This document shows positions 21,862-39,519 of a stretch of 64,000 nucleotides of DNA, in pieces. Origin of the DNA: an uncultured Erysipelotrichaceae bacterium (GTDB lineage Bacteria; Bacillota_I; Bacilli_A; RFN20; CAG-826); contig OMWW01000001.1 of NCBI GenBank assembly GCA_900314865.1, positions 1,457 to 65,456 on the forward strand, read 5' to 3'. The notes beneath the pieces are model-generated. The model saw only the letters and a program-made list of their open reading frames with translations, was not told the DNA's origin and did not search any database. Each line of letters opens with the position of its first letter. The first letter of the stretch is position 1. Both the position numbers and the translations under genes were made by a program.

Positions 21862-21888
21862 AAAGAAAAAGTCCTGATTGTTAGGACT
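21862..21888 (-). terminator. Rho-independent terminator (AGTCCTaacaatcAGGACT followed by a T-run on the minus strand)
   Basis: Hairpin followed by a T-run immediately after the stop codon of the 21888-22094 gene. Confidence 0.6.
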
Positions 21889-22094
21889 TAATCATCGATT
21901 TTTCTTTTACGTTCTCTTGTACTGCTATCGTCGCAGCCACCACCAGAAATCGCGTTTAGTTGTTCATCGGTTAGTTCTACTCCCTCATCTTTGGCGAGTT
22001 GAATCAAATCCGATACATTATCAAATTTTTTAATCTTGGCGATTTGTTCTTTGGTTAAACCTTTTAATAATTCTTTTCTCATAACTAACCTCAC
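21888..22094 (-). CDS. Nif11-like double-glycine leader peptide precursor with short charged core (CDDSSTRERKRKIDD)
   Basis: Leader MRKELLKGLTKEQIAKIKKF...LAKDEGVELTDEQLNAISGGG matches the N11P/Nif11-type leader of the other copies and ends in GG. Has its own tandem box promoter and its own terminator. Confidence 0.65.
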   Translation of the reverse strand: MRLVMRKELLKGLTKEQIAKIKKFDNVSDLIQLAKDEGVELTDEQLNAISGGGCDDSSTRERKRKIDD

Positions 22095-22126
22095 TTTTTC
22101 TTTATCGATTATATTTTAGCAGCCAA

Positions 22127-22147
22127 GGTGCCACTAAAGTGCCACAC
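22127..22147 (-). promoter_or_regulatory. Tandem box promoter element (GTGGCAC-N4-GTGGCAC variant) upstream of 21888-22094
   Basis: Direct repeat seen in sequence. Variant of the TGTGRCAC-N3-TGTGACAA box found upstream of all the precursor genes. Confidence 0.5.
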
Positions 22148-22179
22148 TATTGTATTTTTTCATAATCTCTTACTTAATA

Positions 22180-23367
22180 TTAATTCTTTTTGCTAATTTC
22201 ATCTAACGCATCTTTTTGATGCTGATACACATCAATTATTCGTTCGATTAATTCAGGTGTATAGAAGTTGCTATTAGAAAGTATTTTTCTTATTTCTTCC
22301 TCAAAGCCATCTAATCTTGTTGGTTCATACCATGAATAGTCCCAACTTGATTCTAAAAAGCTAAATAAGAAATAAATAATAAAATATGATCCTTTATTAA
22401 GCTTTGTTATAAATTCTTTTCCAGTTTTACTCGTGCCAAAGGCTCCTGCTAAATCGTGTATTGGAGCGGGTTTAATCTTATTAGTTTTGGTGTTTCTAAT
22501 AACGCAGATATTATCAAAATGTAAATCGGAGATAAAACATAAAGATCTTAAACAAGATAATTTTACAAATAAATCATAGAGTTCAGGCATCCCAAATTCA
22601 GAAACCCTTTTAAAGAATTCTCTATTTTTTTCTTTATTATTATTCCTGCCTAAAAAAAGCTGATATAAGTCGTTAGGGAGAACTACGCTTAAAGGCACTA
22701 ATTCTTCATCTATATCTACTAAAGGTTTACAGATTGAACCGTATTTATCTCCGACTTTTACTAAATCATATTTTAAAACATCGTTTTCTTTTAAGATGCG
22801 GCAAGCAAGTCTAGAGGCTAATACTTCTCCTAAAGAGTCTTCATATTGATCTTTAACTATTCCTAACTTAATTAATTTAGGTCCGTTATCGTAAATCCAC
22901 CCTTTAACTGCCCAACCTTGAGTGACAATATCAGGGACATTTAAGTCGCATTTACTAAGTTCTTCGTATTTGCCGTTAAGGACCGCTCTAGCAAAAGAAT
23001 CATCCCATTTATTAGAGAAAAAATTAATATCTTCGTATTTTAAATCTTCTCCCTCTCTTTTAAACCAGTAATGATTACTTAAAGATAGTCCATGCCCTTT
23101 AAAGGCTAATTCAAAGGAATCTCTACAGCCGATATTTTTAATAATTAAATCGTAGTCCCAACGATTCTCACTAATTTTTCTAGAATTAAAAAACCTCAAT
23201 AGTCTCATGTTGTTACTATCATTATCTTTTTCAACTCCATAAGGGGCTAAATCAAAACGTTCTAATTCTTTAATAAGTCTAATTTTTGGTCTATTAACAT
23301 AATCCACAACAAAAGTTAAGACTTCATAGTCCTTATACATTAAAGTTAATGTTTCTTGATTATGCAT
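22180..23367 (-). CDS. HipA-like / protein-kinase-like fold protein (divergent)
   Basis: C-terminal catalytic-loop-like ISDLHFDNICVI followed by KPAPIHDL; compare HipA DDHAKNFS...LSPAYDL. Preceded directly by a tandem TGTGRCAC box at 23389-23410. Confidence 0.45.
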   Translation of the reverse strand: MHNQETLTLMYKDYEVLTFVVDYVNRPKIRLIKELERFDLAPYGVEKDNDSNNMRLLRFFNSRKISENRWDYDLIIKNIGCRDSFELAFKGHGLSLSNHYWFKREGEDLKYEDINFFSNKWDDSFARAVLNGKYEELSKCDLNVPDIVTQGWAVKGWIYDNGPKLIKLGIVKDQYEDSLGEVLASRLACRILKENDVLKYDLVKVGDKYGSICKPLVDIDEELVPLSVVLPNDLYQLFLGRNNNKEKNREFFKRVSEFGMPELYDLFVKLSCLRSLCFISDLHFDNICVIRNTKTNKIKPAPIHDLAGAFGTSKTGKEFITKLNKGSYFIIYFLFSFLESSWDYSWYEPTRLDGFEEEIRKILSNSNFYTPELIERIIDVYQHQKDALDEISKKN

Positions 23368-23388
23368 GTATTTATATTAATACATATG

Positions 23389-23410
23389 TTGTCACAGATG
23401 TGCCACAAAG
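23389..23410 (-). promoter_or_regulatory. Tandem box promoter element TTGTCACAgaTGTGCCACAA (plus strand) upstream of the HipA-like gene
   Basis: Same box as the precursor promoters; followed on the plus-strand side by a GGCC-aacaaag-GGCC hairpin. Confidence 0.5.
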
Positions 23411-23482
23411 AAAAAGGCCAACAAAGAGGCCTAATCTATTTAGATGAGCCATTTTGTCGTGTTTTTGCCTGTTCGCGAATAA

Positions 23483-23688
23483 GAAAAACCGAGCTTTACA
23501 CTCGGCTTACTTTGCATAAAGTGATTTGCTTTTCTTCCTTGATTTAATATTAGTTCATCAAAAACTATTTATTAACAATCCAGACAAAACCACAATCTTG
23601 ACAGGTGTTATTCCACCATTCAGCAATTGAATTTTCGTTATATTTAGTTTTAATTTTCTTAGAACCACATTTTGGGCAGGTAAAGTCT
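23483..23688. repeat. ~206-bp segment nearly identical to 28652-28858 (3' flank plus core of a decayed precursor copy)
   Basis: Direct comparison of the two stretches. Both contain the hairpin CCGAG-(6-8 nt loop)-CTCGG, the block TTACTTTGCATAAAGTGATTTGC and the out-of-frame core. Confidence 0.75.
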
Positions 23689-23790
23689 TTCTTTAGCGAC
23701 TTTTAATAATTCTTCTTGGTTTTTACACGCTTTAATTTTAGCGATTTGTTCTTCGCTTAATCCTTTAAGTAATTCATTTTTCATAATCAA
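23566..23790 (-). pseudogene. Decayed Nif11-like GG-leader precursor: leader intact (MKNELLKGLSEEQIAKIKACKNQEELLKVAKE), GG region deleted, zinc-ribbon core out of frame
   Basis: Own translation. In the +1 frame the 3' part reads TCPKCGSKKIKTKYNENSIAEWWNNTCQDCGFVWIVNK. Own box promoter at 23824-23846 and RBS AAAGGAG. Not in the ORF track (<60 aa). Confidence 0.6.
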
Positions 23791-23852
23791 AGTCTCCTTT
23801 GTTAACTTAACATTACCACACTACTTGTCACAGAAGTGCCACAAAGACAACA

Positions 23853-24341
23853 CTATTTCATTTCTTCTTTTTTAAGTTTGGCCATATTTATATGGCAATA
23901 CCCATTTGGGTTCTTATGTAGATAGTCTTGGTGATATTCTTCTGCAAGAAAAAATTTAGCGAGTGGAAGTATCTCAATTTTAAAATTATTATTCAAGTGA
24001 GTTGAAAAATAGTTCCTAATTATTTGTTCATCTTTGGAGTCTAGATAATAAACACCTGTACGATATTGTAAGCCTTCATCTTCTCCTTGTTTATTAAGAG
24101 AATACGGATCCACTACTCTTAGATATAATTCCAATAATTTTTCTAAAGAAATAATAGATTCATCATAATCAATTTTGACAGTCTCACTTGCAGTGTCTAA
24201 TCCCTTCTTTAAATCTTCATAACTAGGATTATCTAATTTACCGTTAGCGTACCCCACTTCAGTGGATTCCACCCCTTTTACCAAAGAAAAATACTTCTCT
24301 ACTCCCCAGAAACATCCACCTGCAAAATATATAGTTTTCAT
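23853..24341 (-). CDS. msrA: Peptide methionine sulfoxide reductase MsrA
   Basis: Active-site motif GGCFWG near the N-terminus, ~160 aa, conserved EYHQDY block. Confidence 0.9.
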   Translation of the reverse strand: MKTIYFAGGCFWGVEKYFSLVKGVESTEVGYANGKLDNPSYEDLKKGLDTASETVKIDYDESIISLEKLLELYLRVVDPYSLNKQGEDEGLQYRTGVYYLDSKDEQIIRNYFSTHLNNNFKIEILPLAKFFLAEEYHQDYLHKNPNGYCHINMAKLKKEEMK

Positions 24342-24376
24342 GCCCTTATTATATAAATTTTATATCCTATTTTGTA

Positions 24377-24400
24377 TGAAAAAGACCTCACAGTGAGGTC
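24377..24400 (-). terminator. Rho-independent terminator (GACCTCACtGTGAGGTC followed by TTTTT on the minus strand)
   Basis: Perfect 8-bp stem seen in sequence, followed by a T-run. Confidence 0.6.
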
Positions 24401-24419
24401 TTAACTAGTTTAGTTAACT

Positions 24420-24538
24420 CTATTCGTAATAAGTTGCTTTCCAAGTTTTGCCGCATGTTGGGCAAGTGAATTCGTAATATAATCCCTCGCCAAGTTCACG
24501 GTATAGATATTTGCCTTCAACAGAAGTGCCACAAAAGG
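24420..24538 (-). pseudogene. Leaderless remnant of a precursor core (..EGKYLYRELGEGLYYEFTCPTCGKTWKATYYE*) fused directly to a half box promoter
   Basis: Own translation of the minus strand; CPTCGKTW matches CPKCGKTW in the 28990 copy. Box fragment cagaagtgccacaa at 24521-24534 with no leader or ATG. Confidence 0.45.
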
Positions 24539-24543
24539 AAAAG

Positions 24544-25446
24544 CTATATTAATCCCGCTAAAGTGTTTAATATCATTCCAATAGAGACAAGAATAATTAT
24601 TAATAATAGTTGGAGTTTATTTTTGGATTTAAAGAATAACACTGTTGCTAAAGACACAATAATAAAGTCTAAACCAACGATCACATTAACAATCGCTGGA
24701 ATAGAATTTGAGTAAGAAAAGGCTGTGTATTTTAAGACAACCGTTAAAGCGTTAAATACCGCTCCGATAAAGATAAATAAAAGGACCTTCCATTTAATAG
24801 TGACCACTTCTTTAATTGATTTGGTAAATAAAGAAGAAAGTAACATCGCCCCAAATAGGAAAAATGTTTGATGAAATGAAACTACGTCAGAAGGTAAGTC
24901 ACTTAATTTTGTTTTCACAATTAATAAAACAAAGGCAAAAGCAATAACAGAGACTAGGGCAAACATCACCCAAAGAGTCTTAGCTTTAGGATTAATTTTT
25001 TTATTTAAAACAATATAAATTAGGGCCGCTAATAATAAAGCTAAACCAATATAATATAAGGCAACATTAATTGGCTTACCACCATTAGTGACTAAAGAAT
25101 ACGTAAAAATAACAAACAAAGTATTAGCAAAGAACAATGTTCCTGCACTACAAAATGGAGCAAAAGCTTCCAAGTGAGATCTTTTAATAGCGAGAAAATA
25201 AAATAGCCAATTTATGGCCATTAAAACTCCCACCAAAGAGAGCCAAAGCCACTGTTCAGTTGACAAACTATATAAAATAGGAACATGGCCACGAGCTAAA
25301 CAAATAAAAAAGCAGGCGATAACCATAAATAATGATTTAAGGACTGCATTAGTAATCGCTGAGGCTTTGTTAGCGCCAAGCTTATTAAATACGGTGTTGC
25401 CACTAGAGGCAAATAAAGCTAGGAAAGCAAATAAAATATATTCCAC
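24544..25446 (-). CDS. Polytopic membrane protein (~10 TM), possibly DMT/EamA-like transporter
   Basis: Hydrophobicity pattern only. Confidence 0.35.
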   Translation of the reverse strand: MEYILFAFLALFASSGNTVFNKLGANKASAITNAVLKSLFMVIACFFICLARGHVPILYSLSTEQWLWLSLVGVLMAINWLFYFLAIKRSHLEAFAPFCSAGTLFFANTLFVIFTYSLVTNGGKPINVALYYIGLALLLAALIYIVLNKKINPKAKTLWVMFALVSVIAFAFVLLIVKTKLSDLPSDVVSFHQTFFLFGAMLLSSLFTKSIKEVVTIKWKVLLFIFIGAVFNALTVVLKYTAFSYSNSIPAIVNVIVGLDFIIVSLATVLFFKSKNKLQLLLIIILVSIGMILNTLAGLI

Positions 25447-25493
25447 GATTATTAGAATACTCTTTTCTATAGAAAATAATAACTAGATAAATA

Positions 25494-26582
25494 TTATTGG
25501 TAGATGCTTGGTGGAATTACTTGTTCACGAACATCTTCCAAGAAGTCAATAACTTCAGTATAGACAGTTGGATCTTCTGGTAACCACATATCTCCTATGG
25601 GAGCACGAGCAGATTGGCCAGAACATTCAAAAGCCATGTTTGCGGTTTTAACACTTCCAGATTCTTCATCATATATCTCATTAAGATATTTAATTGTGTA
25701 TTTAAACTCTAAGAATTCACCAGTCTCTTTATCATATGTTAATTTTCCTTTAATATCGCCAGGAAAAATAACATCGATATATTCTTCTTTGATTTCATCA
25801 TTTTTATATACAAAGCTTAATTCAATTTTATCGTCTACTTCTTCTATTAATATATTGTGTCTAGTAATGAAGTTACTAATTTCTTGATCATTCATCTTCA
25901 CTAATTCTTTACAAGAAGAGAAATATAATCTATCTAAATATTCAATATTGCTTGGCGCGTCAAATAAATGAACGTTAGAAAAGATTTCTCTAAATGATCT
26001 AGTAGAAATAGAATCAAACAATAATTCTTTATCGATTTTAGCATTTAATTTTTGTCTAGATTCATAATCATAAGAATCACCATCAGTGACATCTAAAATG
26101 TTATAAACAAAAACATCTTCTTCATTGCTTTTTAAAGTCATTTGTTGATTTATACCTAAATTTTGATTAGTGGCGTAATCTCCACCAACCCTGGAAAAAG
26201 AAGACATCTTTGCGTTTTGAGTAATACGATATCCACCTTCGCCTTCTTTAATCGCATCAAAAACATTGACGTTACCATTTTCATCAACAACAGATTTATA
26301 TTCTTCACTAGATAAATCATAGTAAAAATCAAGGAATCCAAGACCAATATAATTAAAGTAACTTGATGATTTATCATCTTCATCTTTATAAACATCTAAA
26401 ACATCAAATTCTTGGGTGAACGTTGTTCCAATTGCCTTGGAGTGGAATTCAGATAAATCTTGTTTATTCAATAAAGTTTTTAGTTTATTAACTGCTTCAG
26501 TGTTAATAGTGTTAGGAACGGAATCATTACAAGACGCTAATCCGATAACAAGAGGCAATAATAAGAAAATATATTTTTTCAT
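25494..26582 (-). CDS. Lipoprotein of unknown function
   Basis: Signal peptide with lipobox GLASC; acidic extracellular domain. Confidence 0.5.
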   Translation of the reverse strand: MKKYIFLLLPLVIGLASCNDSVPNTINTEAVNKLKTLLNKQDLSEFHSKAIGTTFTQEFDVLDVYKDEDDKSSSYFNYIGLGFLDFYYDLSSEEYKSVVDENGNVNVFDAIKEGEGGYRITQNAKMSSFSRVGGDYATNQNLGINQQMTLKSNEEDVFVYNILDVTDGDSYDYESRQKLNAKIDKELLFDSISTRSFREIFSNVHLFDAPSNIEYLDRLYFSSCKELVKMNDQEISNFITRHNILIEEVDDKIELSFVYKNDEIKEEYIDVIFPGDIKGKLTYDKETGEFLEFKYTIKYLNEIYDEESGSVKTANMAFECSGQSARAPIGDMWLPEDPTVYTEVIDFLEDVREQVIPPSIYQ

Positions 26583-26592
26583 CTTTTACCTC

Positions 26593-28587
26593 CTAAACCA
26601 TGATTGTAACATCGCGTTTAAAACGATCTGAATTGAAATAGGCAGTATCTTTTTTATGGTCTAGTTCAATCTTTTTCTTACCACGATTATCTAAAGATAT
26701 AAATTGATAATACGCCCAATACTCACATCTATGACGTGGTTTTTTGGAATAAGATTTCATGGAGATGTTGTATTTTCTATTAATGGGCATAAATAGCTCC
26801 ATTTTTTCTTCAGTAGCATAGCTATAATAGCCAACCGCAAATCCTTGTTCGCAGTCTTCAATATCACTCTTACCTAAAATATGTCCTTCAACATTTACTA
26901 CACGTTTACCTTTTTTGTTATCTAATCTTAAGCCTAAATCATTAAAGCCAAAGAAATGCATTCTACCAAAATCAGCGTTATTTCTAAGTGGCACTACACT
27001 AATTTGATCACTATGAGAAGAATTATAGTTATCAATATAGTAACTATCCTGAGCTTGCATATGGGCTAAAGCCGTCTCGGCATAATGATTTTGAAAAATA
27101 TCACCCATATGAATAAAGATAGAAATTAATTCATTAGGTCTTTCCCAATAAGCACTACAAAGTGGTCCAAGTAATGCATTAACACAATTTTTAATTGCAC
27201 TAGCGTGTGGTCCAGCGAATTGTTGAATACATTTATCAAAATCTTTAAAATTACCAATAATTGAAGAAGACAAAATTGCTGCTCCTAGCATTTTAACGAT
27301 TAACAAAGGCGTAGAAGGCATGGAGCTTATTTTTTCATCTTTCATAACAAGCATCAATTCTTCTAATGGGCTTTGATATTTTTTAACAAAATCATTTCTT
27401 GAACCTAGATTAGAAGTTAGCTCTTCTAAAAACAGAGTTGTAGCAATATTAGAGTCATAATTTGCTTTTGTATTATCTTTAAGGTCACCAAAATCACCCT
27501 CAAACACATCAATAATCGCCGGAACAATTGTAATCATTTTGAGAAAGTCTTCTATTTTTAGACCATACATCCCAAAATTATCTGCAGTATATTTCACTTC
27601 ATCAGTTTGATTTACGATGTCAAATAAAGCTTTAAACACACGTCTATTACTTTCATAGTTAGAAGGGTCAAAGAATTTGGTGGTAATATATTTATCAACA
27701 CCAAAACGAGTAAACCCATATTCCGACATCCCAACTTTTGTTACGACATCATTAGGGTTAATAATATTAAAAATATTGCCATATAAAGCGTCTTTAGGGA
27801 GCTTAATGGTTTTAGAATTTACGTTTGCTCCCTGAGGGGCTTCAAAAGTATAAGTATAAATATCATCTTTATATAGTTGAACATTATCAAATACCTTTTC
27901 TCCCTTATCTAGATAAGAATCAAGTAACCCTGCGGTAATATTTATCACCGCTCCTCCTCGAGAAAACCCGGTTAACCATAATTTAATATGTCCACTGACT
28001 TGATTAGTTTCAATATAGTTTTTAATAAAGTTAATAGCTTTTATAGAAGCATTGTACCAACCTTCATGCATATAATCAGATTTGCTACCATCTCCTAAAT
28101 GCATATTATTGGCCCATTCACTGTAATATCCTCCAGATCTAGGAGCAACAGCAATTACTGTATAATCCGAAAATTCTTTTTTAGCTGCTGCTAAACCTAA
28201 AGAATCAAATCTCGCTGTTTGCTTATAGTCATCATTAGTAACAAATGAATTAAAACCTATAGTCTCTAATACTTCTTCAATATATTTTGGTTGAGAAAGA
28301 TACCACTGCTCAGTAAATGGAGGATAATCTGTATAAGTTGAAATTGATAGGCACAAAGAAGTAGTTGCTAAATGAGGATCATATTCATAGGCAGAATGTT
28401 CAAAATATGACTGGGAAAAATAAATATCACTTGTAAAAATTGATTTGCCTATTGGGCGTTCATTAGAAACATAAGAAAAAGTATATTTCTCAATCGGATA
28501 TGAGACATTCGCTCTTCGAGGTTCTACTCCACTAACTACACTAGCGGTTAACCCGGTTATCAGAAACAATAATCCAAATGCTTTCAT
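26593..28587 (-). CDS. Secreted alpha/beta-hydrolase, lipase/esterase-like (GxSxG)
   Basis: Signal peptide; nucleophile elbow LWLTGFSRGGAVINI (GFSRG); 664 aa. Preceded by a tandem TGTCACA box at 28628-28649. Confidence 0.5.
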   Translation of the reverse strand: MKAFGLLFLITGLTASVVSGVEPRRANVSYPIEKYTFSYVSNERPIGKSIFTSDIYFSQSYFEHSAYEYDPHLATTSLCLSISTYTDYPPFTEQWYLSQPKYIEEVLETIGFNSFVTNDDYKQTARFDSLGLAAAKKEFSDYTVIAVAPRSGGYYSEWANNMHLGDGSKSDYMHEGWYNASIKAINFIKNYIETNQVSGHIKLWLTGFSRGGAVINITAGLLDSYLDKGEKVFDNVQLYKDDIYTYTFEAPQGANVNSKTIKLPKDALYGNIFNIINPNDVVTKVGMSEYGFTRFGVDKYITTKFFDPSNYESNRRVFKALFDIVNQTDEVKYTADNFGMYGLKIEDFLKMITIVPAIIDVFEGDFGDLKDNTKANYDSNIATTLFLEELTSNLGSRNDFVKKYQSPLEELMLVMKDEKISSMPSTPLLIVKMLGAAILSSSIIGNFKDFDKCIQQFAGPHASAIKNCVNALLGPLCSAYWERPNELISIFIHMGDIFQNHYAETALAHMQAQDSYYIDNYNSSHSDQISVVPLRNNADFGRMHFFGFNDLGLRLDNKKGKRVVNVEGHILGKSDIEDCEQGFAVGYYSYATEEKMELFMPINRKYNISMKSYSKKPRHRCEYWAYYQFISLDNRGKKKIELDHKKDTAYFNSDRFKRDVTIMV

Positions 28588-28627
28588 TTCAAATATTCGC
28601 CTTAATAATTGTATTTTACATTATTAG

Positions 28628-28649
28628 GTGTCACAAATGTGTCACAAAA
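28628..28649 (-). promoter_or_regulatory. Tandem box promoter element GTGTCACAAATGTGTCACAA upstream of the lipase-like gene
   Basis: Same box as the precursor promoters; immediately preceded (on the minus strand) by the hairpin GCCGAGTGAAATATCTCGG plus a T-run. Confidence 0.5.
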
Positions 28650-28651
28650 AA

Positions 28652-28858
28652 GAAAAACCGAGATATTTCACTCGGCTTACTTTGCATAAAGTGATTTGCT
28701 TTTCTTCCTTGATTTAATATTAGTTCATCAAAAACTATTTATTAACAATCCAGACAAAGCCACAATCTTGACAGGTGTTATTCCACCATTCAGCAATTGA
28801 ATTTTCGTTATATTTAGTTTTAATTTTCTTAGAACCACATTTTGGGCAGGTAAAGTCT
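28652..28858. repeat. ~207-bp segment nearly identical to 23483-23688
   Basis: Direct comparison. Confidence 0.75.
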
Positions 28859-28973
28859 CGGTTAATTCAATGCCTTCTTGTTTAGCTAAAGCCAAAAGTT
28901 CCTCTTGGTTTTTGCAAGCTTTTACTTTTGTAATTTGTTCTTCAGTTAAACCTTTTAATAAATCTTTTTTCAT
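28728..28973 (-). pseudogene. Decayed Nif11-like GG-leader precursor: leader MKKDLLKGLTEEQITKVKACKNQEELLALAKQEGIELTE intact, GG region deleted, zinc-ribbon core in another frame
   Basis: ORF-track protein lacks the EQL..ISGGG segment. Its 3' half is identical at DNA level to the 23566-23790 copy, where the alternative frame encodes CPKCG...CQDCG. Confidence 0.55.
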
Positions 28974-28989
28974 ACGGAAAACTTATATT

Positions 28990-29274
28990 CTAGTTATCCC
29001 TCCAAGTTTTTCCACATTTTGGACAGGTAACTTCATTACCGTCTTTATCAAATTTACCGTTATATCCACAGAATGGACAATCAAATGGATTGAGTTTATC
29101 GCCAATATCGGAAACAACACTGCAGGCACCCCCGCCACTAATAACAGCTAATTGTTCGCTTGTTAATTCAACGCCTTCTTGTTTGGCTAAAGCTAAAAGT
29201 TCATCATGACTTTTACATGCTTTAACTCTCGCGATTTGTTCTTCAGATAATCCTTTTAAAAGTTCTTTTTTCAT
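28990..29274 (-). CDS. Nif11-like double-glycine leader peptide precursor with zinc-ribbon-type core (ACSVVSDIGDKLNPFDCPFCG...TCPKCGKTWRDN)
   Basis: Leader MKKELLKGLSEEQIARVKACKSHDELLALAKQEGVELTSEQLAVISGGG, then a core with CPxCG/CxxCG knuckles; RBS AAAAGGAG; box promoter 29314-29335. Confidence 0.75.
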   Translation of the reverse strand: MKKELLKGLSEEQIARVKACKSHDELLALAKQEGVELTSEQLAVISGGGACSVVSDIGDKLNPFDCPFCGYNGKFDKDGNEVTCPKCGKTWRDN

Positions 29275-29313
29275 GATTCGATCTCCTTTTCTAGATATAT
29301 CTTATCATATAGT

Positions 29314-29335
29314 TTGTCACAAAAGTGTCACAAAA
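29314..29335 (-). promoter_or_regulatory. Tandem box promoter: TTGTGACAcTTTTGTGACAAA (minus-strand sense) with -10 TATGAT
   Basis: Seen in sequence. On the minus strand it is preceded by the hairpin GGCCTCCTTGGAGGTC plus TTTTTTT (terminator of the upstream gene). Confidence 0.55.
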
Positions 29336-29418
29336 AAAGACCTCCAAGGAGGCCTAATCTATACTGAAAAGTTTTTTGTCAAATTTGTGATAAGTAACTT
29401 TGGATAACAGTGTCTATA

Positions 29419-29694
29419 TTATAAAGACCACTCATGGCCGCAGCTATTACATTTATAAGTACTACATCCACTTATTTGATAATCTGGCAATTTTCTAAAG
29501 TCTTTTGAACCGCAATTTGGGCATTTCATGGATGAAAAACATCCTCCACCACTAACAGCTTCAATTTGTTCACTAGTTAATTCAACGCCTTCTTCTTTTG
29601 CAAGTTTTAATAATTCTTCTTGGCTTTTACATGATTTTGCTTTGGCAATTTGTTCTTCGTTTAATCCCTTCAATAATTCTTTTTTCATATTCAA
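29419..29694 (-). CDS. Nif11-like double-glycine leader peptide precursor with 6-Cys core (CFSSMKCPNCGSKDFRKLPDYQISGCSTYKCNSCGHEWSL)
   Basis: Leader ...EGVELTSEQIEAVSGGG; own box promoter at 29729-29750. Confidence 0.75.
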   Translation of the reverse strand: MNMKKELLKGLNEEQIAKAKSCKSQEELLKLAKEEGVELTSEQIEAVSGGGCFSSMKCPNCGSKDFRKLPDYQISGCSTYKCNSCGHEWSL

Positions 29695-29728
29695 AGTTCT
29701 CCTCTGTTAATAGCATATTAGCACAGAG

Positions 29729-29750
29729 TTTGTCACAAATGTGTCACAAG
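29729..29750 (-). promoter_or_regulatory. Tandem box promoter TTGTGACAcaTTTGTGACAAA with extended -10 TGcTAATAT
   Basis: Seen in sequence. Confidence 0.55.
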
Positions 29751-29836
29751 AAAAGACCTCGCAAGAGGCCTAATCTAAGCTGGATAAGTCATTTTGTCGT
29801 GTTTTTACACTCGGCTTTTTTTATATGGCAATTAGT

Positions 29837-30124
29837 TTATTTGCTGGTATAACCTGTTTCGAACTCTTTACCACAATCATTACACTTGTATTTTTTCAAA
29901 ACTTTACCAGATTCTCTTAATTTAACATTAGTGCTTCTACATGATGGGCATGGCGGACAATTATCTGTGTTAGAACACGCTCCACCATTAACAGCTTCTA
30001 GTTGTTCACTAGTGAGTTCCAAATCTTCTTTTTTAGCTAAAGCCAAAATTTCATCAGTATTATTACACGCTCTTACTTTAGCGATTTGTTCTTCACTTAA
30101 TCCTTTTAATAAATCTTTTTTCAT
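29837..30124 (-). CDS. Nif11-like double-glycine leader peptide precursor with 6-Cys core (ACSNTDNCPPCPSCRS...KCNDCGKEFETGYTSK)
   Basis: Probable start MKKDLLKGL at 30124 (RBS AAAGGAGAAC); track ORF extends further upstream. Leader ends EQLEAVNGG; box promoter 30166-30187. Confidence 0.7.
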   Translation of the reverse strand: MKKDLLKGLSEEQIAKVRACNNTDEILALAKKEDLELTSEQLEAVNGGACSNTDNCPPCPSCRSTNVKLRESGKVLKKYKCNDCGKEFETGYTSK

Positions 30125-30165
30125 ATTCAAAGTTCTCCTTTGTTGGTTATATGTTAGCAAACTCT

Positions 30166-30187
30166 TTGTCACAGAAGTGCCACAAGA
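30166..30187 (-). promoter_or_regulatory. Tandem box promoter TTGTGGCACttcTGTGACAAA
   Basis: Seen in sequence. Confidence 0.55.
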
Positions 30188-30211
30188 AAAGACCGAGTTT
30201 TTACACCCGTC

Positions 30212-31048
30212 TTATAAACGTTTGATTGTTTTAATGATTTTTCTTTTTCTTCCTTGATATAATCCAGTGCCTTCATACATCAATTCAAATCCACATTTCT
30301 CCAACACTCTTCTGCTGGCTTTATTAGCCGCTAAAGCGATGCCGATTATTTGTTTGAGATTCGTGTTGTTTTTGATGTAATCCAAAAATAGATTACTAGC
30401 TTCAGTAGCGTAACCATTGCCGGTATAAATCTCAGCGATGTGATAACCAATTTCCCATCCTTCTTCTATTTTTACCAGTTGAACATAGCCGAGATTAGCG
30501 TTATCTTTCTTTCTTAAAACCGCGTAAACAAATGGGCCGCCCTCACTATCATAACAATTGATAATTTGGTTAACCACCTCACTAGCTTCTTCTAGTGAAT
30601 TAAATACTTCATCGGGAACAAATTTACGATTATTATCATCTTGCGAGTTTTTATAAACATCGTAGTACATAGATTGATTCATTCTGGCAATTTGCAATCT
30701 ATCGTTTTCAATAATGATTTGTTTATTACAAAGAATACATTTGTTAACGATATTTTTCCAATCTTGATAACGAGATAAGACTCTTAAAATATAAACACAT
30801 TTTGCAAGTTCGTTGACTTGATAAATAGCAACGTGATTTACGCAGATTAAATAGTGTGCATTCGTATAATCAAAAAAAGAATTAGCTATTTTAAGCCCAC
30901 CATAAGGGAAAGTTTCTAATTGTTCGAATCTATCAAATATTTTAAGGATGTATTGTTTAGCAATTTCTAAATTATCTTTGGCAATAAAAGGTTTGATGCT
31001 TTCAAGATCAGAAAAAGCACTATTGGTGATAATGATTTTATACGTCAT
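30212..31048 (-). CDS. ParE/RelE-family toxin domain fused in frame to a GNAT N-acetyltransferase domain
   Basis: Residues 1-~100 resemble ParE/RelE toxins (YKIIITNSAFSDL...YQVNELAKCVYILRVLSRYQDW). Residues ~110-278 are GNAT (acetyl-CoA motif IGIALAANKASRRVLEKCGFEL). ATGA start/stop overlap with the upstream Phd antitoxin gene. Confidence 0.7.
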   Translation of the reverse strand: MTYKIIITNSAFSDLESIKPFIAKDNLEIAKQYILKIFDRFEQLETFPYGGLKIANSFFDYTNAHYLICVNHVAIYQVNELAKCVYILRVLSRYQDWKNIVNKCILCNKQIIIENDRLQIARMNQSMYYDVYKNSQDDNNRKFVPDEVFNSLEEASEVVNQIINCYDSEGGPFVYAVLRKKDNANLGYVQLVKIEEGWEIGYHIAEIYTGNGYATEASNLFLDYIKNNTNLKQIIGIALAANKASRRVLEKCGFELMYEGTGLYQGRKRKIIKTIKRL

Positions 31049-31293
31049 AGTAATTTCTTTTTAGCGTCTTCCAAGGACATAACTCTTCCAGAATTAACGT
31101 CCGCAATTCCTTGATTGATTTCTTGCATTAATTTGATTGTTTTATAAAGTTCATCTAAAACATTTGAATCTATGATTGCGGTATCTTCTCTACCATTAAC
31201 TGTTATATAAACTGGTTGGCCAGTAGTTTTACATAGTTCACTTATTTCTTTATATCTATTTCTTAAATCTGCACTAGGTCTAATAATTGCCAT
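31045..31293 (-). CDS. Phd/YefM-family type II antitoxin
   Basis: MAIIRPSADLRNRYKEISELCKTTGQPVYITVNGREDTAIIDSNVLDELYKTIKL is the classic YefM/Phd N-terminal fold sequence; overlaps the toxin gene by 4 nt. Confidence 0.85.
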   Translation of the reverse strand: MAIIRPSADLRNRYKEISELCKTTGQPVYITVNGREDTAIIDSNVLDELYKTIKLMQEINQGIADVNSGRVMSLEDAKKKLL

Positions 31294-31478
31294 AAAAATA
31301 CCTCGTTATATCATAATTATATCATATGCAGATGTTTTTAAAGATTTAAAAAGCCGCTTTTTTACGGCTCTTGTATATAAGTCAATTTGATCTATAATTC
31401 TCCATCCACAATTATGTCATGTTTAAGCCTGCTCGCGAATAAGAAAAAACTGAGCGTTGCTCAGTTATACTCGTTTGT

Positions 31479-31769
31479 TTAATCGTAATTCTCAATTTTG
31501 TAGCCACAGCTTTGGCAGATATAATAGGTGCCTTTGTCTTTTAAGTTGTTGCTACCACATCTTGGACAGTCATATGGATTAATGTAATCTCCGATATCTG
31601 AAATAACGCTACAAGCGCCACCACCACTAGCAACAGCTAATTGTTCTTCAGTAAGTTCAACACCTTCTTTTTTAGCGAGTTTTAAAAGTTCTTCATGGCT
31701 TTTGCATGCTTTAACTTTAGCGATTTGTTCTTTAGTTAAACCTTTTAATAATTCTTTATTCATATTCAA
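31479..31769 (-). CDS. Nif11-like double-glycine leader peptide precursor with zinc-ribbon core (ACSVISDIGDYINPYDCPRCG...ICQSCGYKIENYD)
   Basis: Leader ...EGVELTEEQLAVASGGG; RBS AAAGGAGAAC; box promoter 31804-31825. Confidence 0.75.
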   Translation of the reverse strand: MNMNKELLKGLTKEQIAKVKACKSHEELLKLAKKEGVELTEEQLAVASGGGACSVISDIGDYINPYDCPRCGSNNLKDKGTYYICQSCGYKIENYD

Positions 31770-31803
31770 AGTTCTCCTTTATTAGTTAGATGCTATCACA
31801 ACA

Positions 31804-31825
31804 TTTGTCACAGATGTGCCACAAA
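31804..31825 (-). promoter_or_regulatory. Tandem box promoter TTGTGGCACatcTGTGACAAA
   Basis: Seen in sequence. Confidence 0.55.
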
Positions 31826-31990
31826 AAAACCTTGTAAGAGGCCTAATCTATGCTGGATGACGCTAGATCAAGCGTGGTTTCTATAGTTGTTTAACCAATC
31901 CCGTCCTGAGTTGTCCAAAACCCTTCGTCCTTTGAAGGCAAAAGAAAAACCGAGATATTTCACTCGGTCACGATAGAATGATTAATGATT

Positions 31991-32305
31991 TTACACTGGT
32001 GAACTATTGTCCGTCCATGTGTAGCCACACTTCTCGCAAGTGTACTTCTTGCCATCTTTTACAGGTCTGTTCGCACCACATTTTGGGCAATCAAACGGAT
32101 TGATTTTATCGCCAATATCAGAAACAACACTGCAGGCACCCCCGCCGCTAATAGTGGTTAGTTGCTCGTCGGTAAGTTCAATCCCTTCTTCTTTCGCTAA
32201 TGCTAATAATTCATCACTATTCTTACATGCTTTTGCTTTAGCGACTTGTTCTTCGGTTAAACCTTTTAGTAATTCTTTTTTCATAGAGTTTTTTACTCTC
32301 TCCAT
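31991..32305 (-). CDS. Nif11-like double-glycine leader peptide precursor with zinc-ribbon core (ACSVVSDIGDKINPFDCPKCG...TCEKCGYTWTDNSSPV)
   Basis: Likely start MKKELLKGL at 32284 (track ORF starts 7 codons upstream and overlaps the preceding gene). Leader ends LTTISGGG. No own box promoter, so probably co-transcribed with 32293-32580. Confidence 0.7.
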   Translation of the reverse strand: MERVKNSMKKELLKGLTEEQVAKAKACKNSDELLALAKEEGIELTDEQLTTISGGGACSVVSDIGDKINPFDCPKCGANRPVKDGKKYTCEKCGYTWTDNSSPV

Positions 32306-32580
32306 TTAAATCCGCAGCTTTGGCATTGGAATAGATTACCTTTGCCTTTCACTGCTTCAACTTTGTTGCTGCCACATTCTGGGCAATCAAACGGATTTAA
32401 AAAATCTCCAACATCTGAAACAACGCTACAAGCACCGCCACCACTAATAGCGGATAGTTGCTCATCAGTAAGTTCGATTCCTTCTTCTTTAGCTAAAGCT
32501 AAAAGCTCTTCATGGTTTTTGCAAGCTTTTACTTTTGCAATTTGTTCTTCAGTTAAACCTTTTAATAATTCTTTTTTCAT
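32293..32580 (-). CDS. Nif11-like double-glycine leader peptide precursor with zinc-ribbon core (ACSVVSDVGDFLNPFDCPECG...QCQSCGFKWRE)
   Basis: Probable start MKKELLKGL at 32580 (RBS AAAGGGG); the 47-codon N-terminal extension in the track ORF overlaps the box promoter at 32618-32640 and is unlikely to be coding. Confidence 0.7.
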   Translation of the reverse strand: MKKELLKGLTEEQIAKVKACKNHEELLALAKEEGIELTDEQLSAISGGGACSVVSDVGDFLNPFDCPECGSNKVEAVKGKGNLFQCQSCGFKWRE

Positions 32581-32617
32581 ATCAAAGCCCCTTTGTTGAA
32601 CATATCTTACCATATAG

Positions 32618-32640
32618 TTTGTCACAAATGTGCCACAAAG
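32618..32640 (-). promoter_or_regulatory. Tandem box promoter TTGTGGCACatTTGTGACAAA
   Basis: Seen in sequence; followed on the plus-strand side by GGCC-aacaaag-GGCC TAATCTA, as at 23410-23440. Confidence 0.55.
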
Positions 32641-32749
32641 AAAAAGGCCAACAAAGAGGCCTAATCTATTTAGATGAGTCATATTGTCCAATATTGAATA
32701 ATTCTCACAAAAACGGGACACAGGACTTATTTATTAAAAGAATAAAAAG

Positions 32750-35756: not shown

Positions 35757-35816
35757 GGGGCATTAACTCGGTTGGGAGAAGCTTCGTTCGCACGAGGAGG
35801 TTGGGAGGTTCGAGAC
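35757..35816 (+). pseudogene. tRNA-Ala-like remnant (5' ~55 nt: acceptor 5' strand, D-arm, anticodon-arm-like TTCGCAC, T-arm GGGAGGTTCGAGAC; no 3' acceptor)
   Basis: Aligns to the intact tRNA at 37211-37286 (TAACTCGGTTGGGAGAAGCTTCGTTCGCACGAGGAGGTTGGGAGGTTCGAG vs TAGCTCACCTGGGAGAGCGCATCGTTCGCAACGATGAGGTAGGGAGTTCGAG); opposite orientation. Confidence 0.4.
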
Positions 35817-36004
35817 ATAAAACAAAAGCCCTCTTACGAGGACTTGTTTGGATAAGTCATTCGTGAACAAGAAAAACCGAGTTTTTACACTCGGCTATTA
35901 TCTATTTTGGTATCACTTTCTTTTGGTATGCTCTTTTGCCACAATGTAGGCATTTCATATATCTAGTTCTATTAACAAAATCAACGAAGAGTAGAATGCA
36001 AATA

Positions 36005-37039: not shown

Positions 37040-37210
37040 AATAGTTCTCCTTCATATATATTATATAATAATATAATTGAACTATCAATATATTTGAAAG
37101 TTGAATTGCTCACAAGAAAAGACCTCACATGGAGGCCTCATCTATGTTGGATAAGTCGTTTTGTGCAAAACCGGATTAGGGACTTTGGCCGACGACAATT
37201 TTCATATTTA

Positions 37211-37286
37211 TGGTGGATCTGAGGAGGCTCGAACTCCCTACCTCATCGTTGCGAACGATGCGCTCTCCCAGGTGAGCTACAGACCC
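37211..37286 (-). tRNA. tRNA-Ala (G3:U70 identity pair; anticodon loop TTCGCAA gives anticodon CGC), CCA encoded
   Basis: Hand-folded cloverleaf: acceptor GGGTCTG/CAGATCC with G3:U70, D-arm TAGCTCACCTGGGAGAGC, anticodon stem CATCG/CGATG, T-arm GGGAG-TTCGAGC-CTCCT, 3' ACCA. Confidence 0.8.
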
Positions 37287-37333: not shown

Positions 37334-39478
37334 CTATCTTAATACAGGAATAATATAACTTGGCTCTTCAATCGCATTAAAGAGGTTCCAGTTCACACTT
37401 CGATATCCACAAGTGTTGTAGAAGGTTTTGTCCACTTCTAAAGGAAGGAGGATACCATCTTTTTCTTCTCTACTGAGTTCATAATTAAATACGTTGTCAC
37501 TTGAATAATAGCAACTACGTAAATCAGTTAACGCAGTGGACATGATGCCTTTATTACCATCGATATAATCAAAGTTAACTTTGTTCTTAAGAAACATCAC
37601 TCCTTCTATTTCTTTCCCGTCTTCAATAATCACACCCGCAAAATAGACGTGCTTATTCGCTACACATTCAATATCGTTGTTATATAGGATTACTCTTTTG
37701 ATTGATTTCACAAAGGTATTCGCCACTAAAGATATGGAGGAGTAATATTGTGTTCCACTTAAATACACATTCGTGTCACTCATGTATGAATCTCGAATTG
37801 AGTAGTTATTAGATTGTGAACTTCTCGCTAAAAAACAAGAGAGATGACATTCTGATTTATCTCCATTAACAATCAAAGAACTGTTTTTGATTTCAACCTT
37901 TTCCATCGAGGCTCTAACACCACACGCAACCACAATACTTGCAAATGTGTCATTAGTCTTGGCATTTGCCTTCACATGAACGTTATTAAATCTCACGTTT
38001 GAAAGCACAAAATCTTCACCACTTCCAAATAAAGAGGCAACATGTGTTGCGTTATCGGCCTCAATTTTCGTTTCAACAGTGAAATCAACAACATCTAAAT
38101 CATAGATAACTCCGAAGAAGAAAGAGAAGATACCATAATCATAATTACCTTCAACCTTATCGACTTTAGTAATAGAAGCGTGACCAATTGAGTGGCCATT
38201 CCCATCAATCACTCCTTTGACACATAAAAGATAATCTAAGGATGTAACTTCAATGTCCTCGTTCAAAACATAATATAAATATTCATCTTGATGATTAAAG
38301 AAATCGGAGTAGCTATTAACGTAAGTGATATGATTACTACTAACCACTCCAAAAAGGAACATATCGTTATTAGTGAACGCATAATCAATTTGATTGTTAC
38401 TATCAAGATATCGAATCTTGGTTAATTGAATAAAGGAACTAAATCCATAACTCGTATAGATAGAAGTGAACACCGATTTATCAATCGTCACTACTTCTTT
38501 TTCTTGAGTAAGCTTAGTGTCATCAATTTCATAACTTGTTTCGTCAATCTTGAGAAACACTTTTTCAACTTTCAAATCATCATTGTTATTAAGGATGATT
38601 GATAAACCTTCGGGGTTATTGACATCATAAATATGATCTTGATTAACCTCATCAATCATATAGTCGATAGTGAGGCTACCATCTCCTCCGATATATTCCC
38701 CACCATTTTCTTGATACGTCGCTATATAAGTAACATCACTACTAACATTAACAATGTCTTTGTCCCAACCAACGAAATCATAGCTATAAATTAGAGTGGA
38801 TGGCTTAGTAGGAATTTCTCCTTTATATGTAGGAAGTTCGTTATATAGGTAGCTTTCTTTATATATCACAGTCCCATCATAGTTAGCCCAAGCGACTTCA
38901 TATCTTTGATTGTTAGTCTTGTTTCGATTAACAAGTAATACAGTAGTCATCACTCCCGCGATAGCGATAACCGTGGCGATAGAGGAAAACAATATCCATT
39001 TATGTTTCTTCTTACCTACATCTTCCTCAACAACTTCATCTTTGATAACAAAATATAATTCATCAACTTTGAGTTTATATATTTCACATAACTTTAAATA
39101 ACTAGCGAGGTTAGGGTATGAACTTCCTTTTTCCCACGCGCTTATGGTTTTCGTGTTTACATTTAAGATATCCGCTAAATCGGATAAGGTGTAGCCAGCT
39201 TTCTTTCTTAAATACTTCAAGTTTTTAGCGAACTTGTCCGCATCAAAGTCACTCTTCTCACACCTATCATTCTTTTTAGTGGCTTTCTTATTGATAAAAC
39301 CTTCTAGATCAACTTCAAGTAAAGAAGCATATTTAGACCATACACTTAAATCTGGAAAGCTTCTTCCACTTTCCCACGCAGAAACACTTTGAGAAGAATA
39401 ACCTAATATCTCTCCAATCTTGTTTTGAGATAAGTTAACTGTATTTCTTCGTTCCAGAAAAAAATCAGAATGGTCCAT
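37334..39478 (-). CDS. Membrane-anchored regulator: two N-terminal XRE-type HTH domains, one TM helix, large extracellular domain with Listeria-Bacteroides-type repeat and beta-helix-like repeats
   Basis: HTH1 LSQNKIGEILGYSSQSVSAWESGRSFPD; HTH2 AGYTLSDLADILNVNTKTISAWEKGSSYPN; TM WILFSSIATVIAIAGVMTTVLLV; YxFxGWDKD repeat; repetitive V/N/S-rich C-terminal segments. Confidence 0.6.
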   Translation of the reverse strand: MDHSDFFLERRNTVNLSQNKIGEILGYSSQSVSAWESGRSFPDLSVWSKYASLLEVDLEGFINKKATKKNDRCEKSDFDADKFAKNLKYLRKKAGYTLSDLADILNVNTKTISAWEKGSSYPNLASYLKLCEIYKLKVDELYFVIKDEVVEEDVGKKKHKWILFSSIATVIAIAGVMTTVLLVNRNKTNNQRYEVAWANYDGTVIYKESYLYNELPTYKGEIPTKPSTLIYSYDFVGWDKDIVNVSSDVTYIATYQENGGEYIGGDGSLTIDYMIDEVNQDHIYDVNNPEGLSIILNNNDDLKVEKVFLKIDETSYEIDDTKLTQEKEVVTIDKSVFTSIYTSYGFSSFIQLTKIRYLDSNNQIDYAFTNNDMFLFGVVSSNHITYVNSYSDFFNHQDEYLYYVLNEDIEVTSLDYLLCVKGVIDGNGHSIGHASITKVDKVEGNYDYGIFSFFFGVIYDLDVVDFTVETKIEADNATHVASLFGSGEDFVLSNVRFNNVHVKANAKTNDTFASIVVACGVRASMEKVEIKNSSLIVNGDKSECHLSCFLARSSQSNNYSIRDSYMSDTNVYLSGTQYYSSISLVANTFVKSIKRVILYNNDIECVANKHVYFAGVIIEDGKEIEGVMFLKNKVNFDYIDGNKGIMSTALTDLRSCYYSSDNVFNYELSREEKDGILLPLEVDKTFYNTCGYRSVNWNLFNAIEEPSYIIPVLR

Positions 39479-39519
39479 ACATCACATATTGTACATCATT
39501 CTGATTAATTCTTTATGCT

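Follow-up and report, generated by a model that had tools for sequence, protein, structure and literature searches.

The 64-kb window analyzed here, a stretch of contig OMWW01000001.1 from an uncultured rumen Erysipelotrichaceae bacterium, contains a region of minus-strand genes that encode small peptide precursors with Nif11-type leaders and zinc-ribbon cores, a HipA-like protein of 395 amino acids (aa) and a secreted lipase-like protein (see the table). Distributed among these genes is a short sequence, which we call the box, built from two direct repeats of a heptad: TGTGRCAC-N3-TGTGACA. Scanning the window for this 18-mer with up to two mismatches allowed, we found nine copies between 22,129 and 32,637, all on the minus strand, which is exactly the set that an earlier note, made from the letters of this DNA, had listed; eight of them match perfectly and the remaining one has two mismatches. 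The boxes precede seven transcription units for Nif11-leader/zinc-ribbon peptides, the gene for the 395-aa protein (22180-23367) and the Lipase_3-like gene (26593-28587). By chance, 0.14 boxes would be expected in the window, and none of 100 shuffles reached nine. When the search was relaxed and run over all 64 kb, the sites separated cleanly: each of the nine has 0-2 mismatches together with a -10 element, and all other sites have at least three mismatches and lack one. One of these others is a decayed copy with three mismatches, its first heptad intact and its second reading TGTTGAA; the remainder lie within coding sequence.

Read in the sense of the genes, all nine copies have the same architecture: the box, seven variable nucleotides (nt), (TG)n and then TAnnAT, a -10 element that lies 10 nt from the end of the box in every case and is usually TG-extended. 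Information content is maximal at the two heptads and the -10, and is at background level in the 3-nt spacer between the heptads, the 7-nt gap and the flanks; the G at heptad position 4 is invariant in the window. With the conserved TAnnAT set at -12 to -7, the heptads occupy about -40/-34 and -29/-23, and the box as a whole approximately -40 to -23. As the earlier note had proposed, the repeats stand about one helical turn apart: a period of about 11 bp is seen in all nine window copies and in the genome matches listed (at least 138, described below). No sigma-70 -35 hexamer is seen, and seven of the nine copies have no -35-like hexamer 16-18 bp from the -10; the boxes keep a fixed phase to the -10 and overlap or replace the -35. 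The note had also taken the first box to be a -35 placed 17 bp from a TATGAT, a reading that fits just two of the nine copies, the conserved -10 being TAnnAT.

Other familiar elements were considered and rejected. Sigma-54 promoters have the consensus TGGCAC-N5-TTGCW, with an invariant GG at -24 and GC at -12; here TGACAC occurs in four of nine copies, the second element is TGAC rather than TTGC, and a sigma-A extended -10 stands at a fixed distance. A CRP/FNR-like palindrome is no better: aligned with its reverse complement, the 18-mer agrees at 12 of 18 positions, a score explained solely by the internally palindromic heptads (TGTnACA), and a direct repeat fits at 7 of 7. Nor is the box an integron attC or cassette recombination site: there are no R'/R'' cores and no integrase, and it tracks promoters, not cassette ends.

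The arrangement of the promoters supports the earlier idea that the precursor, HipA-like and lipase-like genes share the element, in the form of an operator embedded in the promoter. The promoter at 28613-28646 probably drives the whole lipase/lipoprotein/EamA operon, from 28587 down to 24544. The HipA-like gene, a box and the short precursor are arranged as in the window in L080 and L132 (loci compared with the window carry L numbers), and in L132, L080, L122, L023 and L031 a box occupies the place that corresponds to the promoter of the HipA-like gene, 3' of a regulator gene. The -10 of the HipA-like gene ends just 6 nt before the annotated ATG at 23367 (23367-23379), which suggests a leaderless mRNA or a start at the conserved Met10. 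What had been taken for a half-copy before the RhuM gene is merely the ...TCTTTTCTTGTG end of a tRNA trailer module, and RhuM has a promoter of its own, TTGATA-17-TATAAT.

Table. Boxes, genes and trailer modules of the window, in order of position; the 18-mer of each box is given in brackets.
Feature	Positions	Strand	Details
Short Nif11-leader peptide, 64 aa	21888-22082	-	Charged core, no zinc ribbon
Box TGTGGCACTTTAGTGGCA (22129-22146) with extended -10 TGCTAAAAT (hexamer 22113-22118)	22113-22146	-	Promoter of short precursor 21888-22082
HipA-fold kinase-like protein, 395 aa	22180-23367	-	AF2 (AlphaFold2) model, Foldseek, alignment
Box (23390-23407) with -10 TAATAT	23374-23407	-	Promoter of HipA-like gene
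Shortened trailer module	23408-23508	-	T-run, hairpin 23415-23432, tail, CCGAG terminator 23486-23508
Box (23826-23843) with extended -10 TGGTAATGT	23810-23843	-	Promoter of precursor 23553-23784, disrupted in assembly
Decayed box (24516-24533) and C-terminal zinc-ribbon precursor remnant	24410-24533	-	Fused
Lipase/lipoprotein/EamA block	24544-28587	-	Lipase_3-like secreted protein 26593-28587, lipoprotein 25494-26582, EamA transporter 24544-25446
Box (28629-28646) with -10 TAAAAT	28613-28646	-	Promoter of lipase-like gene
Nif11-leader/zinc-ribbon precursor array	28723-32583	-	Split by Phd/ParE-GNAT pair 30212-31293
Box (29315-29332) with extended -10 TGATAAGAT	29299-29332	-	Promoter of two-gene precursor operon 28990-29274 and 28723-28973
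Box (29731-29748) with extended -10 TGCTAATAT	29715-29748	-	Promoter of precursor 29419-29688
Box (30167-30184) with extended -10 TGCTAACAT	30151-30184	-	Promoter of precursor 29837-30124
Box (31806-31823) with extended -10 TGATAGCAT	31790-31823	-	Promoter of precursor 31479-31763
Box (32620-32637) with extended -10 TGGTAAGAT	32604-32637	-	Promoter of two-gene precursor operon 32293-32583 and 31991-32284
Further trailer-module copies	29333-29418, 29749-29826, 31824-31975, 32638-32690	-	
tRNA-Ala(CGC) with full trailer/terminator module of ~100 nt	37109-37286	-	tRNA 37211-37286, module 37210 down to 37109; source type of the tail

We scanned one genome per GTDB species for the box followed by a 7-nt gap and TGnTA. 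This gave at least 138 matches in at least 120 stretches, against approximately 9 expected from the database size with equal base frequencies assumed. Almost all of the matches listed come from rumen or gut Firmicutes, and only two or three look like chance. By record title they include about 28 metagenome-assembled genomes (MAGs) of Bacilli, 'Erysipelotrichaceae' or 'Bacillales' and about 40 Clostridia assemblies, mostly from the rumen; the Clostridia include Lachnospiraceae, Ruminococcaceae, Oscillospiraceae, Butyrivibrio, Pseudobutyrivibrio and Oribacterium, cultured isolates among them. Homologous precursor genes of other species (L007, L008, L011) have the same box, gap and extended -10, also in unrelated genomic contexts, and the lipase homologue of another species (L106) is box-preceded too. 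A single genome may carry the box on five or six contigs, and there are 10 matches in RUG12224 and 11 in RUG14810.

Among the matches listed, the sequence downstream encodes a Nif11-leader precursor in 52 cases, another GG-leader peptide in 17 (many with LysM-like C termini), a secreted protein or lipoprotein in 27, another small protein in 23 (a class into which several more Nif11 precursors were mis-binned) and another protein of more than 130 aa in 9; in 10 there is no open reading frame (ORF). Start codons lie a median of 28 nt from the -10. Looked at from the side of the genes, 82 of the 111 Nif11 precursor genes in the loci have a box (up to two mismatches) upstream, in 64 of them with its end 41-42 nt from the ATG, and the 29 boxless genes are mostly second genes of operons. 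Because the box is conserved across species and positioned before genes, these sequence comparisons lead us to conclude that it is not a private or locally duplicated spacer, but a promoter element, and a conserved one, that belongs to a dispersed regulon.

Some of the genes behind boxes fall outside the peptide and lipase families: in L121, L127, L063, L081, L069, L073, L083 and L096 they encode AbiEii-like nucleotidyltransferases, a STAS anti-sigma-antagonist-like protein and a secreted lipoprotein family of about 495 aa. In Oribacterium and Lachnospiraceae isolates and MAGs (L015, L119, L120, L095, L086), and in L013/L087 and L085/L104, the box and extended -10 stand before ORF-less stretches of 100-170 nt that end in intrinsic terminators, some of which contain a C-rich hairpin, GCGGAGCCCACACCCCTTCCATCCCCACCGC; no Rfam family matches them. 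These stretches are candidate regulator-dependent small RNAs, comparable to the CiaR-dependent small RNAs known as csRNAs.

A dispersed regulon suggests a dedicated regulator, which the earlier note had remarked was not visible in the window. Pfam scans and tblastn bear this out: the window encodes no response regulator, histidine kinase, radical SAM enzyme or C39 exporter. A Pfam search of the flanking window genes for a regulator returned just LacI, ROK and a 714-aa protein with two HTH_3 domains, and tblastn of the regulator, kinase, radical SAM and 129-aa proteins described below against the window returned nothing. The window holds target promoters only; provided that the organism has genes for regulation, maturation and export, these must lie in other parts of the genome.

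Candidates for these missing genes emerged when ORFs around the box matches were clustered to find recurrent neighbours. Beside precursors and ABC exporters, we found a 397-aa family homologous to the 395-aa protein of the window, a membrane histidine kinase of about 420 aa with PF06580 His_kinase and HATPase_c domains (LytS-type), and a response regulator of 252-253 aa. In the canonical cluster (L132-L134, L080, L011) the order is kinase, regulator, [box] HipA-like gene, [box] precursor and short precursor, followed by a radical SAM/SPASM enzyme, a 129-aa HlyD-like protein, an NHLP-type C39 exporter pair, and STAS, STAS-APH and SpoIIE/HATPase_c_2 proteins. The window holds the segment "[box] HipA-like [box] short precursor" of this cluster, without the rest. 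In the relatives, the exporter pair matches the NHLP ABC1/ABC2 models (TIGR03796/TIGR03797) strongly, just below the cut-offs, the 129-aa protein matches the N terminus of an HlyD-like secretion protein, and no curated family accommodates the radical SAM enzyme.

The regulator gene and the box are physically linked. In box-selected loci, a box lies 5-230 nt after nine of ten regulator genes, including those of Clostridia homologues at 35-43% identity (L022, from Lachnospiraceae bacterium AC2029, L084 and L074). To guard against selection bias, we also fetched 80 metagenome loci by the C-terminal domain of the regulator alone. Two heptads, 7 nt and a -10 occur within about 170 nt after 18 of the 27 rumen-type regulators in this set (at least 68% identity; read from the downstream sites listed). 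The heptads differ by lineage in these loci, with both repeats changed in concert: besides TGTGRCA/TGTGRCA there are TGTTGCA/TGTTGCA (L139, L142, L144, L149, L154, L160) and TGTAGCA/TGTAGCA (L156, L159), operator "dialects" in which spacing and -10 are kept, and also a few hybrids. Such concerted change would be expected if one protein reads both repeats.

What kind of protein this would be is indicated by its predicted structure. Pfam recognizes the receiver domain, which is closest to BtsR/LytR. The C-terminal 135 residues contain a motif like that of Streptomyces antibiotic regulatory proteins (SARPs), (K/Q)CFGNFEV...KSKE(L/A)FAYL...LW, followed by CDAYEY...YRGEYMxQYSW; about 40 residues come after the wing, so that a BTAD is at best truncated. 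The Joint Genome Institute (JGI) name for one member is "two-component SAPR family response regulator". A profile of the C-terminal domain gave six weak matches in the PDB (E 0.07-0.5), among them DrrB, AfsR (three entries) and EmbR. The AlphaFold model, with a pLDDT (predicted local distance difference test score) of 79, shows beta-beta, three helices and a beta hairpin, and the top 20 PDB matches of this model in Foldseek are full-length OmpR/PhoB-family regulators, over 208-241 aligned columns. By this modeled fold, the regulator is a receiver domain joined to an OmpR/SARP-type winged helix, and not a LytTR protein.

This bears directly on the type of binder. LytTR sites are 9-bp direct repeats with 12-13-bp spacers and a periodicity of about 21 bp. 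The LytTR-type regulator suggested in the earlier note thus fails on the 11-bp period, on the winged helix of the box-linked regulator and on the absence of any LytTR domain from the window and the box-linked loci; its broader suggestion, that a dedicated protein encoded outside the window binds the direct repeat, is supported as the best explanation.

Well-characterized activators use sites of just this geometry. SARP sites are direct repeats with an 11-bp periodicity, and the afs box spans -40 to -19; an AfsR protomer touches the first 8 bp within each 11-bp unit, and the side-by-side dimer substitutes for a poor -35 (PMC10936776, PMC10972967). CiaR binds TTTAAG-N5-TTTAAG exactly 10 nt from the -10 (PMC3091779). 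In sites of the OmpR/PhoB/SARP kind, the 3' repeat lies 8-10 bp upstream of the -10 (PMC10936776, PMC3091779). The geometry of the box equals that of SARP, CiaR and PhoB activator sites, which makes a class-II-like activator site, rather than a LytTR site, the best explanation. We consider it probable that the box is such a site for the regulator, putatively of the COG3947 "SAPR" type, and that it marks a regulon of secreted bacteriocin-like peptides. According to this model, the 18-bp box would be the operator of an activator-dependent sigma-A promoter, in which two units of 11 bp, made up of 7-8 conserved bases (TGTGRCAc) and 3-4 free ones apiece, together cover about -40 to -19 and stand in for the -35, with an extended -10 (TGnTAnnAT) downstream. 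The proposed binder, a phosphorylatable regulator made of receiver, OmpR/SARP-like winged helix and short BTAD-like tail, would sit as a head-to-tail dimer with one protomer per heptad, and its partner would be the LytS-type membrane histidine kinase. Once phosphorylated, the regulator would bind the box and recruit RNA polymerase to these -35-less promoters, activating rather than repressing them; many dispersed GG-leader peptide genes would be switched on in this way, along with accessory secreted proteins such as those of the lipase operon in the window.

Several observations weigh against this model. Nine of the 27 rumen-type regulator genes have no recognizable site just downstream, and none of the 51 regulators in a branch of 42-52% identity, many from human gut metagenomes, has one; the link between box and regulator therefore holds for one branch of the family, and adjacency is not universal. 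The C-terminal domain of the regulator has no Pfam match, even at E = 10, and its sequence-level PDB matches are not individually significant. The recognition helix reads HP...IQ(N/T/Q)TL in regulators beside TGTGRCA and HK...(E/D)TLKE beside TGTTGCA, a correspondence that is confounded with phylogeny and that we do not use as evidence. Regulator and kinase are not found in the window by tblastn and would be encoded elsewhere in this species, if at all, and the expected transcription start, about 7 nt after the -10, is predicted from the position of that element. Genes of XRE-type HTH proteins lie near several box clusters, including that of the window. An extended -10 can also work without an activator, which leaves room for a repressor at -40 to -23.

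The last two points lead to the alternatives. A different regulator might bind the box, be it the essential WalR-type member of the OmpR family, a LytTR regulator or membrane-anchored XRE/HTH_3 proteins (window 37334-39478). The WalR consensus is TGTWAH-N5-TGTWAH, from which TGTGAC-N5-TGTGAC is one position off per hexamer (PMC9210968), but that position is the G at heptad position 4, invariant in the window, where WalR needs A or T; moreover, the lineage-specific changes of the heptads accompany a dedicated adjacent regulator, which is not expected of the conserved housekeeping WalR. A LytTR protein gains some plausibility from the facts that PF06580 kinases usually pair with LytTR regulators and that the receiver of the linked regulator is closest to BtsR/LytR, yet none of the box-linked loci contains a LytTR domain, and LytTR repeat geometry does not have an 11-bp period. 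XRE genes do flank the island in the window, L011, L008 and L097, but just four box-selected loci were found to have such genes, and XRE HTH proteins usually bind inverted repeats. Taken together, we think it unlikely that a regulator of another kind reads the box. That the box serves a repressor, which would block polymerase at otherwise constitutive extended -10 promoters by binding at -40 to -23, is a thought encouraged by the ability of such promoters to work without a -35 and by the overlap of the box with the region that polymerase occupies. Nevertheless, the SARP, PhoB and CiaR activator sites that replace an absent -35 have exactly this position and phasing (PMC10936776, PMC3091779), seven of nine copies lack a -35-like hexamer at 16-18 bp, and the linked regulator bears an activator-type SARP/BTAD signature; repression is, in our estimate, quite improbable.

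Finally, the box might have no dedicated function, its similarity being a residue of recent segmental duplication of precursor cassettes and their spacers in a recombination-prone, tRNA-linked island. The island is indeed rich in repeats, deletions and strain polymorphism, and the trailer and tail described below are truly co-duplicated passenger sequence. However, the 7-nt spacer and flanks diverge where the box itself is retained, before genes as unrelated as the HipA-like and lipase genes, and identical spacing in distant species of two bacterial classes and in unrelated contexts already contradicts this explanation, to which we give very little credence.

The activator model places the box system close to several known ones without making it identical to any. 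With SARP sites (the AfsR afs box, ActII-ORF4 and DnrI of Streptomyces) it shares heptameric direct repeats, an 11-bp period and the overlap or replacement of the -35, and the box-linked regulator has a SARP-like FGNFEV...KxKELFAYL winged helix-turn-helix and a BTAD-like start. Unlike SARPs, however, this regulator has an N-terminal receiver, a BTAD stub and a LytS-type kinase, occurs in Firmicutes and would have ribosomal peptide genes as its targets; the heptad is TGTGRCA rather than TCGAGxx-like, and the box promoters have a strong extended -10. Class II sites of the OmpR/PhoB family (CiaR, WalR, the pho box) are also alike, as the box can be written as hexamer-N5-hexamer 10 nt upstream of a -10 without a -35 and resembles the WalR consensus; the csRNAs of CiaR have a parallel in the short ORF-less candidate transcripts of some Lachnospiraceae. 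Here the differences are in the regulator subfamily, the partner kinase family and the target set. The pheromone-bacteriocin regulons ComDE/BlpRH of streptococci and PlnBCD of Lactobacillus plantarum likewise combine dispersed GG-leader operons, a C39 ABC exporter, a two-component system and a direct-repeat promoter box, and the core cluster of the box system contains a short GG-leader peptide that could be a signal. Those regulons, in contrast, use HPK10 kinases and LytTR regulators that read 9-bp repeats spaced about 21 bp apart, where we see a winged helix, an 11-bp period and a LytS-type kinase. NHLP/Nif11 systems (TIGR03796/TIGR03797/TIGR03798) resemble the box system in their Nif11-like leaders ending in GG, their exporter pair (leaders and exporters here all scoring below the cut-offs) and their HlyD-like protein, but the cores of the box system are zinc-ribbon-like (CxxC...CxxC) and its radical SAM enzyme lies outside the curated families.

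It is, then, an already known kind of arrangement that a two-component system controls a bacteriocin-like peptide regulon through direct-repeat boxes. In the literature searched, we found no regulator or operator described for NHLP/Nif11 systems, and no prior description of the box motif, of a SAPR/COG3947 binding site or of a rumen Nif11/radical SAM system; nor did we find there this type of regulator with a LytS-type kinase, the operator with its lineage dialects, or the link to NHLP/Nif11 zinc-ribbon peptides across rumen Bacilli and Clostridia. The box thereby provides a first candidate operator and target set for COG3947 receiver-SARP-like regulators, and ties NHLP/Nif11 peptide systems to a specific candidate regulator. 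In practical terms, two heptads, 7 nt and TGnTA make a simple and highly specific handle for mining a competition or secretion regulon in uncultured rumen Bacilli, cultured Lachnospiraceae and Oribacterium, one that reaches even peptides too small or divergent for gene callers. Cultured strains carry the system or the box (Lachnospiraceae bacterium AC2029, with the regulator beside a box at about 2.570 Mb of JNLK01000001; Oribacterium C9, P6A1 and WCC10, with the box alone), so that electrophoretic mobility shift and reporter tests are feasible. The concerted change of heptads between lineages also offers a natural series for the evolution of winged-helix specificity.

More tentatively, the pieces could form a quorum-sensing-like circuit widespread in rumen Firmicutes, in which the LytS-type kinase, the receiver-SARP-like regulator, the HipA-fold kinase and a STAS/SpoIIE switch, with lineage-specific operator dialects, would coordinate large, dispersed sets of zinc-ribbon RiPPs (peptides that ribosomes synthesize and that are modified post-translationally), other GG-leader peptides, secreted enzymes, toxin-like proteins and the small RNAs of some Lachnospiraceae. 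The signal of this circuit, which in its full form we hold to be doubtful, would be the short charged GG-leader peptide encoded beside the radical SAM gene, and its role as a secreted signal is speculation. In relatives this short precursor indeed lies directly before the radical SAM gene; an example of its core is CDDSSTRERKRKIDD.

The HipA-like member of the system is recognizable by fold. The 395-aa window protein has no Pfam or NCBIfam match, one homologue in its family of 219 proteins carries PF07804, and a sequence profile of the family found nothing in the PDB; the fold search alone worked. The AF2 model has a pLDDT of 90, and its best Foldseek matches are HipA 4pu5 (E 5e-9, template modeling (TM) score ~0.5), CtkA and HipT. 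D281, H283, N286 and D305 are invariant in the family alignment, giving a D-x-H-x-x-N loop and the Mg-binding Asp. The modeled structure thus supports the HipA-like kinase label of the earlier note at the level of fold. There is no adjacent gene for a HipB partner, and the fixed place between regulator and precursors suggests that the protein acts within the peptide system rather than as a classical HipBA toxin. The lipase-like label is confirmed by a match to Pfam Lipase_3. Among the precursors, five of seven peptides scanned match TIGR03798 at 17.8-22.9 bits, all below the cut-off of 32.3, and a precursor scores 23.7 against a cut-off of 23.8 for Pfam Nif11.

We also asked what the sequence upstream of the boxes represents. 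According to the earlier note, a hairpin and conserved tail precede every copy; in fact, the GGCCTAATCTA hairpin and tail precede five of nine (23389, 29314, 29729, 31804 and 32618). The boxes at 28628 and 30166 follow a different terminator, CCGAG...CTCGG, those at 22127 and 23824 come directly after a stop codon, and many boxes in other genomes have no tail. A tail is found directly 3' of tRNA-Ala(CGC) in L036 (2485-2582) and L057 (3715-3812) as well as in the window, and after tRNA 3' fragments in L008 (8131-8228) and L101. Precursor arrays of relatives carry a trailer form of about 170 nt, of which the window copies are deletion-shortened versions. The trailer (~75-100 nt) is highly conserved in primary sequence; its hairpin loops vary and its stems stay fixed, which fits a terminator. 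We rejected a structured RNA, as Rfam has no family for the trailer and none of 12 predicted pairs covaries among 16 sequences. We read the tail as a tRNA trailer/terminator that was carried along by cassette duplication or recombination, insulates the units and lies outside the operator. The unit of about 90 nt is not, as had been supposed, one functional module: its tail is a co-duplicated tRNA-Ala trailer/terminator and not part of the promoter.

The trailer holds two internal direct repeats of about 20 nt, GTCCAAAGTCACTTATTC and GGACAAAACGACTTATCC. It could be recombination-related, with arm-type sites, but no integrase was seen. A truncated, inverted tRNA-Ala(CGC)-like pseudogene (35770-35900; plus strand) abuts a minus-strand variant of the trailer module; this arrangement recurs at about 6640 in L061 and about 650 in L011, and ARAGORN and Rfam give no call.

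The surrounding island, 21.5-37.3 kb, adjoins the tRNA-Ala(CGC) gene, has a G+C content slightly below that of its surroundings and contains RhuM, a Phd/ParE-GNAT toxin-antitoxin pair and the precursor arrays. We ruled out that its ends are att repeats of the tRNA 3' end, of which there is no second copy in the window. The toxin-antitoxin pair consists of a Phd/YefM antitoxin gene followed by an unusual 278-aa fusion of a ParE toxin and a GNAT acetyltransferase, and it has its own promoter, without a box. Strains are polymorphic here: metagenome contig L001 lacks a block comprising lipase, lipoprotein, EamA and MsrA genes and one precursor (window 23689-28860), which is bounded by a 193-nt perfect repeat (23496-23688 and 28666-28858). 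The paralogous precursors 23553-23784 and 28723-28973 have internal deletions of 65 nt and 46 nt relative to strain L002; each of these stops exactly where the 193-nt repeat has its edge, so that they may be an artefact of assembly induced by the repeat.

A TldD/PmbA metallopeptidase pair (57787-60605), for which no link to the box system was shown, is encoded some 25 kb away from the peptide array. Pairs of this kind process some peptides, such as microcin B17. Directly upstream of the tRNA, a membrane protein of 714 aa whose N terminus carries two HTH_3 domains, preceded by an ORF of about 64 aa (37334-39738), is a possible regulator of the island together with that ORF.

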